A stretch of DNA of 64,000 nucleotides from a virus. Shown here in pieces: positions 4,027 to 58,597 of the stretch. Each line of letters opens with the position of its first letter. The first letter of the stretch is position 1. A program made the translations under genes and the position numbers. The stretch lies in the IMG/VR virus record IMGVR_UViG_3300032087_005124, positions 1,975-65,974 of that record; one strand, 5' to 3'. The notes under the pieces are model-generated. The model searched no databases and had not been told where the DNA came from. It saw only the letters and a list, made by a program, of their open reading frames with translations.

Positions 4027-4488
4027 ATGCCTAGAGGTTATAAACTTTGTCCAAAATGTGGTGATAATATTCCATCATTTTCAAAAAAATGTAAATGTGG
4101 AGAGATTTTTTCTAGCAAAAAGAGGATAAAAAAACCTGTAAATGAAGGTCATAAAAGGCTGGTAGATTTTATCTCTAGAAATCTCCCAAATAAGTTATCT
4201 TCAAAAGAAATGTCTAGAGAAATTCACGTAGCAAAAATTATGCTAAAAACTTGCTATGATGATTATGATTTCTTAGCTAAGTATAAAATACCTAGTTGGG
4301 TAAAAAAAAGAAATACTTTGCTTTGGTTTAAAACTAAAGATGGCAAAAAGTATTTAAACTCTAAATATAATGAATATTTATTTCAACCTGAAGTAAAAGA
4401 AGATATTTTTGTTGACGAGGGGGAAATTAAGGGTGAGAATGTAGAATATAAGAAGAAAAAGAGTTTAAGAGAATTTTTAGATGAGTAA
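4027..4488 (+). CDS. Hypothetical protein with N-terminal zinc ribbon
   Basis: CPKC...CKC motif; basic protein heading the replication operon. Confidence 0.6.
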   Translation: MPRGYKLCPKCGDNIPSFSKKCKCGEIFSSKKRIKKPVNEGHKRLVDFISRNLPNKLSSKEMSREIHVAKIMLKTCYDDYDFLAKYKIPSWVKKRNTLLWFKTKDGKKYLNSKYNEYLFQPEVKEDIFVDEGEIKGENVEYKKKKSLREFLDE

Positions 4489-5608
4489 GAAAAAAGATAA
4501 AGGTAAAAGTGCTAGTGATTTTTCTAGCGAGTATTTTAAGTCAAACAAAGACGATCATTATAATTTCGCGAAAGCCGCAGAAGAGTATTTAGTTTCGAGT
4601 GGATCTATGTATATGGATCACGTTCTTGGTGGTGGATTTGGTGCAGGTCTACATAGATTTACAGGAGCAAACGAAGGTGGTAAAACTAACGCTGCATTAC
4701 ATGTAATGTTTAACATGTTAAAAAGCGTAAATAAAGCTAAAGGTCTTTTTATAAAAGCAGAAGGTAGATTAAGTAAAGAAATAAAAGAGAGGTCTGGTCT
4801 TAAGTTCGTCTATGATCCAGCAAAATGGGTGAGCGGAACATGTTTAGTTTTTGAATGTAATGTTTTTGATACTGTAATAGATTATCTAAGAGGTCTTCTT
4901 CAGAATAATAGTGAAGATGAAAGGTTTTGTATAATTATAGATAGTATGGATGGAATGATAGCCAAAGATGACTTAGATAAAAGCACTCATGAGGCTAGAA
5001 AAGTTGCGGCAGGAGCTTTAATTACGTCAGATTTTTTAAAGAGGGTCAGTCTCGGAATGTCAAAGTTTGGACATATGTGTATTATGATATCTCAAGTGAG
5101 GTCAGCCATCAAAGCTAGTCAATATACAAAAAGCGATCCCAATAATCAAACTAACAGTAGTGGTGGTAATGCTATTTTGCATTATCCAGATTGGATTTTA
5201 GAATTTAAAAAAAGAAAACAAGCTGATCTTTTCTTACAAGACTCAGGAGCAACATTAAGTCTTACAAATAAACCAATAGGTCATATAGCAACAGTTCAAA
5301 TACTAAAATCTACAAATGAAACTACAGGTCAAACAGTTCAATATCCTATAAAGTATGGGAGAACAAACGGGCGGTCTATATGGGTAGAAAAAGAGGTTAT
5401 AGATATGCTTCTTATGTGGTCTTATTTGCAAAAGAGAAGTTCTTGGATTACAGTTGATTCAACTTTACTTGAACACTGCAAATCTAATAAACTAGATATG
5501 CCTGAAAAATTCCAAGGTACAAATAAAATTTTAGAGAGTCTTGAGGAGAATCCTCAAATTAAAGATATCTTAAAAGATTTTGTACAGAAAGAAATAATGG
5601 CCCAATGA
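4481..5608 (+). CDS. recA: RecA/UvsX-family recombinase
   Basis: Walker A GANEGGKT, IIIDSMD Walker B, ISQVR, SSGGNAILHYPDW, PIKYGR. Confidence 0.9.
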   Translation: MSKKKDKGKSASDFSSEYFKSNKDDHYNFAKAAEEYLVSSGSMYMDHVLGGGFGAGLHRFTGANEGGKTNAALHVMFNMLKSVNKAKGLFIKAEGRLSKEIKERSGLKFVYDPAKWVSGTCLVFECNVFDTVIDYLRGLLQNNSEDERFCIIIDSMDGMIAKDDLDKSTHEARKVAAGALITSDFLKRVSLGMSKFGHMCIMISQVRSAIKASQYTKSDPNNQTNSSGGNAILHYPDWILEFKKRKQADLFLQDSGATLSLTNKPIGHIATVQILKSTNETTGQTVQYPIKYGRTNGRSIWVEKEVIDMLLMWSYLQKRSSWITVDSTLLEHCKSNKLDMPEKFQGTNKILESLEENPQIKDILKDFVQKEIMAQ

Positions 5609-55931: not shown

Positions 55932-56453
55932 ATGCCAGAAGATAATTTAGGAGATCCAATTCCAAGAGACGAGCCATTTGTGGTTCCTGCCCAACCAGAA
56001 GAAACATTTGATTCTGTTTGGTTGCGTAGTATTAATATTTATGCACCAAATACAGCAGAAGCTGATCCTACTCAGGGGAGTATTAATGTTGAAATGTTGC
56101 CTTATGATGCAGAGAATAAAAAAGTTTTAATAACTGCTGATAATGAAGGGGCTGAATACATTAATGTACCTTCTAGAGTTAACGGAAGAAAACCTTTTTG
56201 GCAGATGATTCAAGAAGTTCCAGAGGCGGCCGCTGCCATGGATGCTATCATTGCTGCTATACCTGCTATTAGAACTTGGGCAAATACACCGCCCCCTGAG
56301 CCAGAGCCACCTGAGCCATCACCACCAGAGCCTGATCCAGAGCCAACTCCAGATCCAGAACCAACTCCAGATCCAGAGCCTGTTGACGATGGTGCTGATC
56401 CAGAGCCTGTTGACGATGGTGCTGATGCAGAGCCTGTTGACGATGGCGTTTAA
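55932..56453 (+). CDS. Hypothetical protein with Pro/Glu/Asp tandem-repeat tail
   Basis: Globular N-terminus followed by PEPEPP/PDPEPT/PEPVDDGAD repeats. Confidence 0.65.
   Translation: MPEDNLGDPIPRDEPFVVPAQPEETFDSVWLRSINIYAPNTAEADPTQGSINVEMLPYDAENKKVLITADNEGAEYINVPSRVNGRKPFWQMIQEVPEAAAAMDAIIAAIPAIRTWANTPPPEPEPPEPSPPEPDPEPTPDPEPTPDPEPVDDGADPEPVDDGADAEPVDDGV
56337..56446 (+). repeat. In-frame tandem repeats: 2 x 18 nt followed by about 2.7 x 27 nt
   Basis: ccagagccaactccagat / ccagaaccaactccagat; ccagagcctgttgacgatggtgctgat units at 56373, 56400, 56427. Confidence 0.9.
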
Positions 56454-56488: not shown

Positions 56489-56821
56489 TTAGGATATGTC
56501 TTTCTTGATGTATCCTAACATTTTTATTTGTCCTATTAAGCTCATAACGTTAACACAATTTATACTTTTTGCGACTACAGTTAACGGGTAGTTATGTTCG
56601 GTGTCTAAACGTACACCTTCTTCTCTTTTATCTGGGCTAAGTATTTCTGACACATAGTCATAGAAACCTTTTTTCTTTAGAATCTTATAATAATAGTCTA
56701 TTTGAGATTCAGGAGCCTCAATTAGCACATCCATCTCCAAATAAGACTTGGCGGTCATGCTAAGAAATCTGAAATATAGACCTTCGTTTAGAGTTAAATC
56801 AGATACAACAATCAAGTTCAC
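56489..56821 (-). CDS. Hypothetical protein (possibly a degenerate HAD-like fold)
   Basis: GTG start preceded by GTGTAA on the minus strand; LIVVSD...KKGFYDYVSEIL. Confidence 0.5.
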   Translation of the reverse strand: MNLIVVSDLTLNEGLYFRFLSMTAKSYLEMDVLIEAPESQIDYYYKILKKKGFYDYVSEILSPDKREEGVRLDTEHNYPLTVVAKSINCVNVMSLIGQIKMLGYIKKDIS

Positions 56822-56904
56822 TATAATTTTTACACAAATATAGCCTAAAAATCGCCTTAATTGAATTTAAATTAATTAAAATTAAGAATAGATCTAGTAA
56901 TAAA

Positions 56905-56941
56905 TTACTTCCAAGAATGAGAGCTAAAGAGCCAAATATAG
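56905..56941. repeat. 37-bp dispersed repeat, copy 1
   Basis: ttacttccaagaatgagagctaaagagccaaatatag; same spacing as the copies at 57713 and 57750. Confidence 0.65.
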
Positions 56942-56947
56942 TAGGGT

Positions 56948-57709
56948 TCATTTAATCCAATTACATTTTGAATTAATCAATTGTTTTTTTGTTTTCTTTT
57001 TATAAGGAACTCTAAAACTTAAATCGTCTTTGATTATATCTCTTTCTTCACTGTTTAAATGATGATCGTTTTTATTATGAAACCTATAATAATATAATTT
57101 ATCTTTTATGTGGAAACATCTATTTTTACCTGCCATTTCTGCCATTGGTACAAATAAAACCATATCTTCTCCATACTTGAAAAATTTTCCATCTTTATAT
57201 TTTAAGTCTACATCTTTTACATTTTTCAATAAGAAAAATTTATGAGACCTTAAATGTGTTAAACAAAATCTTTGATTTCTTAATGATTTAGACCAGTCTA
57301 CAGGTGACAAATGGTCTTCTGGGAATTGAATTAGTGGAGAGGAAGAAAAACCTCCATAAGTAAACCAGTAACCTTTTGAATATATTGTTTTTAAATAAGA
57401 TAAAGTCTTTGCGTATTTTAAATGGTCATCACCATCTACAGTAACAATAATATCTTCATCATCAGGTTTGGCGACAGAAACAAAATTTATAGTCTTATTA
57501 AAGACAGCACCTTTGTTTTGTTTATTTTGTGTTATGATTATTCTTGAATCTTTTTTTGCAAATTCTCTTGCTACGTTTACAGATGAGTCGGTACTCGCAT
57601 CATCCATGATATACATCTCCCAATTTTGCTCCTCTTGCATTTGAATGCTTTTAATACAAGAACTTATATAGCTTTCGCAGTTATAGCAGGTTGTGATAAT
57701 TTTAATCAT
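56948..57709 (-). CDS. Glycosyltransferase family 2
   Basis: IITTCYN, DDASTD, IVTVDGDD (DxD), YGEDM, LYYYR. Confidence 0.9.
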   Translation of the reverse strand: MIKIITTCYNCESYISSCIKSIQMQEEQNWEMYIMDDASTDSSVNVAREFAKKDSRIIITQNKQNKGAVFNKTINFVSVAKPDDEDIIVTVDGDDHLKYAKTLSYLKTIYSKGYWFTYGGFSSSPLIQFPEDHLSPVDWSKSLRNQRFCLTHLRSHKFFLLKNVKDVDLKYKDGKFFKYGEDMVLFVPMAEMAGKNRCFHIKDKLYYYRFHNKNDHHLNSEERDIIKDDLSFRVPYKKKTKKQLINSKCNWIK

Positions 57710-57712
57710 AAA

Positions 57713-57786
57713 AAAGTTCCAAGTTTAAGAGTAAAAAAGCCAAATATAGAAAGTTCCAAGTTTGAAGAGGAAAAAGCCAAATAAAG
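57713..57786. repeat. Two tandem copies of the 37-bp repeat
   Basis: aaagttccaagtttaagagtaaaaaagccaaatatag (57713-57749) and aaagttccaagtttgaagaggaaaaagccaaataaag (57750-57786). Confidence 0.85.
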
Positions 57787-57821
57787 AACTTCAAATCAAA
57801 TAAAAAAACAAAATAAAAAAA

Positions 57822-58181
57822 TTAATCTGGCAAAACAATTTCTTCTTTTGTGGAATATTTCTTTTCTTTTCTTTCTTTTATCAACATTGCTTTTGCTAAA
57901 ATCGCATAGTTTACAATGTCATCACAAGCATCTGTAACAGTCTCATCTGAAACAGAAAGTTCTTTGTCGTTAGTAAAAGAATTAATTCTTTGTATTTTGT
58001 CAATAACACGAATTAAAAGACCTTTTACTGGATGCATACCAATAATTTTGGCTGAGTTAAAATTAGCAAAAATATCTTGTGCGGTTTTACCACCAGTATA
58101 ATCGCTGTTTTTCTTTACCATGACTTCCCTGCAACTATTACAGGTGTCTTCGTGAATGTTTAATAATTCATTTAAATCCAT
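57822..58181 (-). CDS. DUF1599 (nucleotide-modification-associated domain 1)-like protein
   Basis: KKNSDY...NF...IRVIDKIQRI...DACDDIVNYAIL. Confidence 0.7.
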   Translation of the reverse strand: MDLNELLNIHEDTCNSCREVMVKKNSDYTGGKTAQDIFANFNSAKIIGMHPVKGLLIRVIDKIQRINSFTNDKELSVSDETVTDACDDIVNYAILAKAMLIKERKEKKYSTKEEIVLPD

Positions 58182-58569: not shown

Positions 58570-58597
58570 ATTATAAATAGTAAACTGGTATTGTCAA
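58570..58597 (-). promoter_or_regulatory. Consensus sigma70 promoter TTGACA-16-TATAAT (leftward)
   Basis: tgtcaa at 58592-58597 and attata at 58570-58575 on the + strand; ATG 9 nt downstream. Confidence 0.8.

Follow-up and report, generated by a model that had tools for sequence, protein, structure and literature searches.

A bipartite repeat unit as candidate boundary motif of a single accessory-gene hotspot in a large family of uncultured marine phages

In the modular theory of phage evolution, as developed for the lambdoid phages, short conserved linkers lie between exchangeable modules, and mosaic joints cluster at these linkers. The concept closest to the locus described here is the promoter-early stem-loop (PeSL) cassette of T4-type phages. 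PeSLs are conserved gene-boundary motifs of hyperplastic regions, each composed of a promoter with sigma70 consensus and a stem-loop terminator, and they occur many times per genome, in several regions (PMC2839356; PMC4122927). In close relatives, indels and gene replacements are bounded by these motifs; no dedicated recombinase is known, UvsX-type recombination being presumed, and mini-circles are formed by exchange between flanking motifs (PMC2839356; PMC4122927).

The window analyzed here is a stretch of 64,000 nucleotides from the IMG/VR record IMGVR_UViG_3300032087_005124 (positions 1,975 to 65,974), in which a GT2 glycosyltransferase (GT) gene is bracketed by copies of a 37-nt direct repeat. 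It belongs to a large family of uncultured marine phages of about 100 kb, which share a single hotspot of accessory genes. On balance, the evidence favors a reading in which the repeat units are the boundary motif of this hotspot, located by a DUF1599 gene, where cargo is swapped by exchange between co-infecting relatives.

The repeats of the window and their gene neighborhood

The genes of the locus are all on the minus strand (Table 1). In the sense of the genes, the order is: promoter, a 45-aa ORF, an 85-aa ORF, the DUF1599 gene, a T-rich tract, copy 3, copy 2, 8 nt, the GT2 gene, a 50-aa ORF (p50) with copy 1 inside, and a 110-aa gene (p110); copy 1 starts 9 nt 3′ of the GT stop codon. The coordinates that the initial annotation had given for the arrangement around the GT gene are correct, while its layout has to be reoriented, since the flanking genes are all on the minus strand.

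Table 1. Features of the locus and of the window discussed in the text (positions are those of the window)
Feature	Position	Strand	Remarks
UvsX-like recombinase	4481..5608	+	phrog_97, E 1.6e-32; candidate for short-homology exchange
p110, 110-aa conserved gene	56489..56821	-	borders the variable region in most relatives; homologues 57-98% identical, about 30 loci
p50, 50-aa hydrophobic ORF	56799..56951	-	start overlaps the GT stop by 4 nt
Copy 1	56905..56941	-	decayed unit within codons 4-15 of p50
GT2 glycosyltransferase, 253 aa	56948..57709	-	cargo gene; Pfam PF00535, E 8.6e-19
Segment absent from empty-site genomes	56952..57711		760 nt, exactly the GT ORF
Copy 2	57713..57749	-	unit directly 5′ of the GT start
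Copy 3	57750..57786	-	found by repeat search of the window; best-preserved unit of the family-wide bipartite boundary motif
T-rich tract, 35 nt	57787..57821	-	between the DUF1599 stop and the unit doublet
DUF1599 gene	57822..58181	-	conserved anchor, bordering the variable region opposite p110; Pfam PF07659
Sigma70-type promoter	58570..58597	-	perfect, 12/12 consensus, 16-nt spacer; heads the minus-strand module

A repeat search confirmed the three copies, in the same orientation and at the positions already reported; they form one repeat family, the other two copies being 76% and 81% identical to copy 2. No fourth copy was found, either in the 64-kb window or in its 66.8-kb source contig. Copies 1 and 2 are equal at 28 of 37 positions without gaps, the previously noted match of 27 out of 33 in the core was reproduced, and the longest identical run is 12 nt. 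The similarity of copy 1 exceeds the shuffled background, as no more than 26 positions matched copy 2 in any of 200 shuffled versions of the window with dinucleotides preserved; the copies are also non-palindromic, as had been stated, with no inverted repeat in the unit. A profile built without the lineage of the window clearly recognizes copy 3 (16.9 bits, E 3e-4, the best of 30 shuffled windows scoring 10.7), while copy 2 is recognized weakly and copy 1 is not recognized, indicating that the copies are progressively decayed. The 9-mer at 56835-56843, which had been regarded as a recurrence of the repeat core, is real; however, it occurs six times in the window and is part of another upstream motif, ahead of the 110-aa gene, which the unit profile does not recognize.

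All three copies had also been described as intergenic; this is not clearly the case for copy 1, which lies inside p50. The latter is probably a real gene, coding for a small membrane protein: in the closely related genome L008 its 5′ part is strongly diverged, yet it remains in frame across a 3-nt indel and still encodes a hydrophobic sequence, and further downstream an Arg codon carries a synonymous two-base change. Two N-terminal alleles of p50 are found in the lineage of the window. As regards p110, the AF2 model (pLDDT 90.7) predicts a small Rossmann-like alpha/beta fold; neither a significant PDB match nor a sequence relative of significance was obtained, and the search of a protein atlas was equally empty-handed. 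A role of p110 as the unit-binding protein was considered and rejected, the confident model predicting a Rossmann-like fold with no DNA-binding signature.

The cargo is probably read from the promoter that heads the minus-strand module. Similar promoters are found ahead of plus-strand early genes, at about 59940 and 61272; these, together with the perfect sigma70 promoter of the locus, indicate that the host is probably a bacterium with a standard sigma70, from outside the Bacteroidota. Elsewhere in the window, a 173-aa gene carries a Pro/Glu/Asp-rich tail of tandem 27-nt and 12-15-nt coding repeats (56288-56450); its version in the contig L009 is shorter (159 aa), showing that the repeat number differs between near-identical genomes.

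A bipartite unit conserved across the phage family

Relatives were collected using the DUF1599 protein as a probe, which yielded 166 related stretches, 80 of which were fetched; the unit was searched first with a loose regular expression and then with an nhmmer profile. Searches of annotated phages by DNA or by protein found no cultured relative. According to the profile, the unit is present in 82 of 83 related viral loci, and across the family it recurs where the variable region begins and ends. With a length of about 29 nt, it consists of two conserved boxes at fixed spacing, the core measuring 29 nt in 56 out of 59 unique units: box A, TTATTTGGC, is followed by a spacer of 9-10 nt of variable sequence and by box B, which is TTCGATCTGGG in most relatives and AAACTTGG(G/A)AC in the subgroup of the window.

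The unit occurs one to three times, at one locus only, with no more than two or three copies per genome in three records of 94-109 kb and in the window; by the profile, loci have up to three units. In these three records, at most two matches each to the exact pattern were found, all of them at the DUF1599-flanked locus; one record, 70% complete, had none. In the usual layout, one unit is located at the 3′ end of the DUF1599 gene, where it overlaps the last codons and the stop, antisense to the orientation seen in the window; cargo follows, and then, 0.5-4 kb further, one or two tandem units, an A/T-rich tract and a convergent 110-aa gene. A similar AT-rich tract is found ahead of the distal units in the relatives. 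The orientation of the unit relative to the neighboring genes differs between subgroups, and the unit is coding in some of them and non-coding in others; in most relatives it is antisense to all the neighboring genes or lies between convergent genes.

Different ORFs enter the unit and terminate within it. From its other strand, unrelated proteins take their final codons and their stop, among them DUF1599, a denV-like glycosylase, GT2 and others (L010-L049). The proteins entering the unit share one frame and end in ...SQI(E) or ...SQIE-x3-AK (L014:4310-4344, L028:4068-4103, L019:4887-4921), which may be either the trace of crossovers inside the unit or a common C-terminal tag. In one subgroup (L037, L052, L062, L065, L071 and L075; for example L062:5810-5870) the unit is directly followed by a T-run, then by a GTGTAA motif and the start of a gene; in the window, this GTGTAA motif precedes the 110-aa gene (56830-56843).

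Both boxes are still present in two contigs whose DUF1599 identity is only 51-53%. The boxes are kept while DUF1599 drops to about 51% identity and the spacer varies, a selection not expected for a stretch that only supplies homology; a direct function of the unit itself is therefore probable. That both boxes, and the distance between them, are strongly conserved over such a deep divergence suggests that a protein reads the unit. The units would be more than passive landmarks.

The same conservation can be accommodated by an alternative which we hold to be unlikely, while granting it some weight: the unit could be primarily a protein-binding site, for instance an iteron of a replication origin, with the AT-rich tract beside it as the site of unwinding, or, at the boundary between modules, an operator or a roadblock, with the variation of the cargo being incidental, since module boundaries tolerate insertions. 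A binding site agrees with the bipartite boxes, the variable spacer, the occurrence in either orientation relative to genes, the lack of RNA structure, the deep conservation and the single locus per genome; the tandem doublets do adjoin a T/A-rich tract, and the locus is situated between the late and the early/replication modules. However, cargo genes between the units of one set would be odd for an origin, one unit is usually located inside the coding end of DUF1599, and the copy number ranges from one to three within one lineage, in which copy 1 is dispensable in the type represented by L008. Moreover, no initiator or repressor was identified, and p110 has no predicted DNA-binding fold.

The position of the units in the window's lineage, where a start codon follows each unit doublet by 4-14 nt, past a T-run, could suggest that the unit is a promoter or a 5′ leader (translation-initiation region) for whichever cargo gene comes next; in addition, copies 2 and 1 hold a -10-like hexamer, which by eye fits the Bacteroidota -7 box. 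This proposal appears very improbable, because in the relatives the unit is mostly antisense or between convergent genes. The sigma-A -7 box (TAnnTTTG) was rejected: apart from the three local sites, no occurrence is both non-coding and just ahead of a gene start, the phage's other genes are not preceded by the pattern, and the consensus of the family departs from it. Although a perfect sigma70 promoter heads the module, the sigma70 scan gave no site in the units; neither such a promoter nor an intrinsic terminator was found in 57710-57821 or at copy 1, and the family consensus has no -35/-10 pair. At the RNA level, the folding z-score of 59 unique units, taken with their flanks, averages about 0 for either strand, and no Rfam match was obtained. 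A role as RNA is thus unlikely, as the orientation with respect to the genes differs between subgroups and the unit is sometimes coding and sometimes not, and the RNA leader elements proposed in the initial annotation are disfavored.

Other roles were considered and discarded. A host attachment site or tRNA fragment was rejected because the unit had 30 matches in 596 Gb of prokaryote genomes, as compared to about 26 expected by chance (computed by hand). Two of these matches (L103 and L120) are in contigs binned to Flavobacteriaceae and Verrucomicrobiales MAGs; both contigs encode DUF1599 and clamp-loader homologues of the phage family and carry the unit, and they are probably mis-binned phage contigs, which makes them poor evidence for the host. 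A genome terminus or terminal-repeat boundary was tentatively set aside, the locus being 6-13 kb from the contig end in several long contigs.

Cargo states and junctions at the locus

In 39 loci, the space between the units is occupied by shuffled sets drawn from 44 gene clusters, most of which are sugar-modifying. They include GT2, a GT34-like transferase, sulfotransferases, an epimerase, Glf, a formyltransferase, a denV-like glycosylase, a GDSL hydrolase, a 2OG oxygenase, a cupin, HNH and EndoVII nucleases and a pyrophosphatase; homologues of the window's GT2, with 79-91% identity, are found in other cargo combinations. Homology breaks at 86% of 111 unit sites vs 43% of 971 other gene junctions, a comparison in which the loci are related and non-independent, so that the p-value is indicative only, and which is partly circular, since the units sit at the edge of the variable region.

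The cassette states are best seen in contigs of the same lineage, whose DUF1599 is 94-100% identical to that of the window; two of them come from the fetched loci, the others from a metagenome scan with the window-type unit. Four contigs have no cargo at this site (L009, L135, L136 and L138), two have an epimerase (L008 and L137), two the GT together with the epimerase (L130 and L133), and one the pyrophosphatase alone (L131). The last two (L140 and L141) contain four genes, coding for a sulfotransferase, a GT, a weak sulfotransferase-like protein and a pyrophosphatase, and have no unit ahead of the GT. In L009 (DUF1599 99% identical), copy 3 and copy 2 are followed by 11 nt, which contain the p50 start codon, and by copy 1, with no GT gene; in L008 (DUF1599 100% identical), an NAD-dependent epimerase takes the place of the GT, the replaced stretch being delimited by the 3′ edges of copies 2 and 1. 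The presence of different cargo at one site in near-identical genomes indicates that the GT is optional and exchangeable cargo, and the proposal of the initial annotation that it forms an exchangeable cassette has been borne out, both by the genomes without GT or with another gene and by the further cargo sets. Unit copy number likewise ranges from one to three within the lineage.

Two side observations concern these contigs. In L133 (996-1746), the GT homologue matches in three frames, so that it is either frameshifted, as decaying cargo, or affected by assembly errors. Furthermore, a second sugar module is present on the other strand just past the 110-aa gene in L008 (5793-7567), L131 (7026-8320) and L137 (3549-4843); it comprises a 55%-identical GT2 and a further gene, Glf-like by eye, of 329 aa in L008 and 169 aa in L131 and L137. 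Being absent from the window, this module marks a second variable spot.

For the cassette, the initial annotation had proposed recombination between the bracketing copies, which would delete or amplify the GT within a genome and produce phase-variable glycosylation. The copies are indeed direct and significantly similar, and adjacent units do recombine or slip: in L133, whose GT is 86% identical, a single unit precedes the GT, and precisely 37 nt, one period, are missing. However, comparison of the window with L009 by blastn showed flanks 97.3% identical over 3.8 kb and 91% identical over 1.8 kb, which are contiguous in L009, and the indel is 760 nt, not the 808 nt of the repeat period. Copies 3, 2 and 1 are all retained in each of the four empty-site contigs, where the p50 start codon lies between copies 2 and 1, and copy 1 is found 11 nt beyond copy 2; thus, the repeats were not left behind by an insertion, nor was the empty state generated by exchange between copy 2 and copy 1. 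Such an exchange predicts a hybrid copy, which the lineage's other contigs, 11 in number, all lack; the identical run between the copies does not exceed 12 nt, and the deletion would take the p50 start away. Nothing indicates variation within a genome, as the differences lie between genomes from different samples. We therefore regard an origin of the cassette by recombination of copy 2 with copy 1, and the phase variation that would follow, as extremely improbable. A transposon or insertion with target-site duplication was also rejected, since it predicts one copy in the empty site, and the empty sites carry three.

The junctions point to a different history. On the left side, the window is collinear with all its relatives through the DUF1599 gene and the units. 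On the right side, it tracks the GT-plus-epimerase genomes up to the end of the GT and then switches to the empty-site sequence at ATGAA, 5 nt that are common to the epimerase start and to the p50 start; this explains why the GT stop overlaps the next start. The right junction of the window is therefore not at a unit. Copy 2 is 36/37 identical to the unit preceding the epimerase in L008 and identical to the single unit of L133, which precedes the GT there: copy 2 travels with the cargo. Sorting the units of three close genomes into shuffled variants was attempted and dropped, as identities of 31-36/37 leave too little difference.

Units that bracket the cargo, and that at times separate single cargo genes, could also be the target of a dedicated site-specific recombinase, in an integron-like cassette system of the phage. 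Consistently, the conserved boxes resemble a recognition site, and in the more distant L014, whose GT is 79% identical, homology to GT-bearing genomes such as L130 starts inside the unit preceding the GT. Nevertheless, neither the locus nor the window contains an integrase, an invertase or a transposase; the unit is non-palindromic and forms no hairpin, unlike attC; the junctions fall at no fixed position of the unit, and one of them is start-codon microhomology; and several units are retained at the empty sites. A dedicated recombinase is thus improbable.

The favored reading, exchange between co-infecting relatives at the boundary units, would proceed as follows. Cargo, mostly sugar-modifying enzymes, would be gained, lost and replaced at the units; the units and the adjoining conserved genes would provide homology for one crossover, while the other junction can be microhomology. 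The GT2 of the window would have arrived together with copy 2, from a donor having a unit-GT-epimerase arrangement, into an empty site containing copy 3, copy 2 and then copy 1 inside p50. The left crossover would have occurred in the common stretch from DUF1599 to the unit, and the right joint would be microhomology at the 5 nt over which the start codons of the epimerase and p50 overlap; one DUF1599-to-unit crossover and one start-codon microhomology joint represent the simplest history. Some observations weigh against this reading: the boxes are more conserved than passive homology would require, the right junction of the window is not at a unit, the GT of L140 and L141 has no unit ahead of it, and the data consist of assembled contigs, in which recombination intermediates cannot be seen. 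We infer that the exchange is carried out by general homologous recombination, as the phage has a UvsX-like recombinase, and this enzyme would then have a part at the repeat locus.

Significance and comparison with known systems

At this locus, the exchange of accessory genes in an abundant family of uncultured marine phages can be followed concretely, at the level of defined sequences, with the before, after and alternative natural states resolved to the base. The motif is also a practical handle, which pulls the variable locus and its repertoire of sugar-modifying cargo out of metagenomes. Its conservation raises the question of how such a motif, being neither promoter nor terminator, is maintained. 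A stronger version of the proposal, which we consider rather improbable, is that the unit is a recognition site for a phage or host protein that actively directs gene exchange to one locus, an accessory-gene “dock”. If so, the dock would be integron-like in function and mechanistically new, and the motif would be selected because it allows the swapping of glycan- or nucleotide-modifying genes beside DUF1599, which is itself associated with nucleotide modification.

Comparison with origin iterons reveals direct tandem repeats of tens of bases, placed by an AT-rich tract at one locus per genome; however, there are only one to three units, with genes between them and one usually in a coding end, and no initiator gene was recognized. 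With integron attC sites the locus shares the single position, the row of promoterless single-gene cargo and the repeated site between cargo units, while it differs in the absence of an integrase, of an imperfect inverted repeat and of a hairpin, and in junctions that are not at a fixed point; no IntI or other integrase was found among neighbors or cargo by Pfam and PHROGs, in a contig that is about 52% complete. Similarly to the linkers of lambdoid phages, the units are short conserved stretches at the joints of exchangeable modules; unlike them, the unit is a defined bipartite motif, present on both sides of the variable block and conserved far beyond the adjacent non-coding DNA.

The PeSL cassette remains the nearest parallel, since here, too, the indels and replacements that distinguish close relatives have the unit at their borders. 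The unit differs in having no promoter match, no stem-loop and no fixed orientation to genes, in occurring only one to three times at a single locus, and in being often partly in coding sequence. Lacking the promoter, the stem-loop and the many copies of PeSLs, as well as the hairpin and the integrase of attC systems, it belongs to neither class; in the favored reading, it would extend the PeSL idea, that boundary motifs channel gene shuffling, to an unrelated group of phages.
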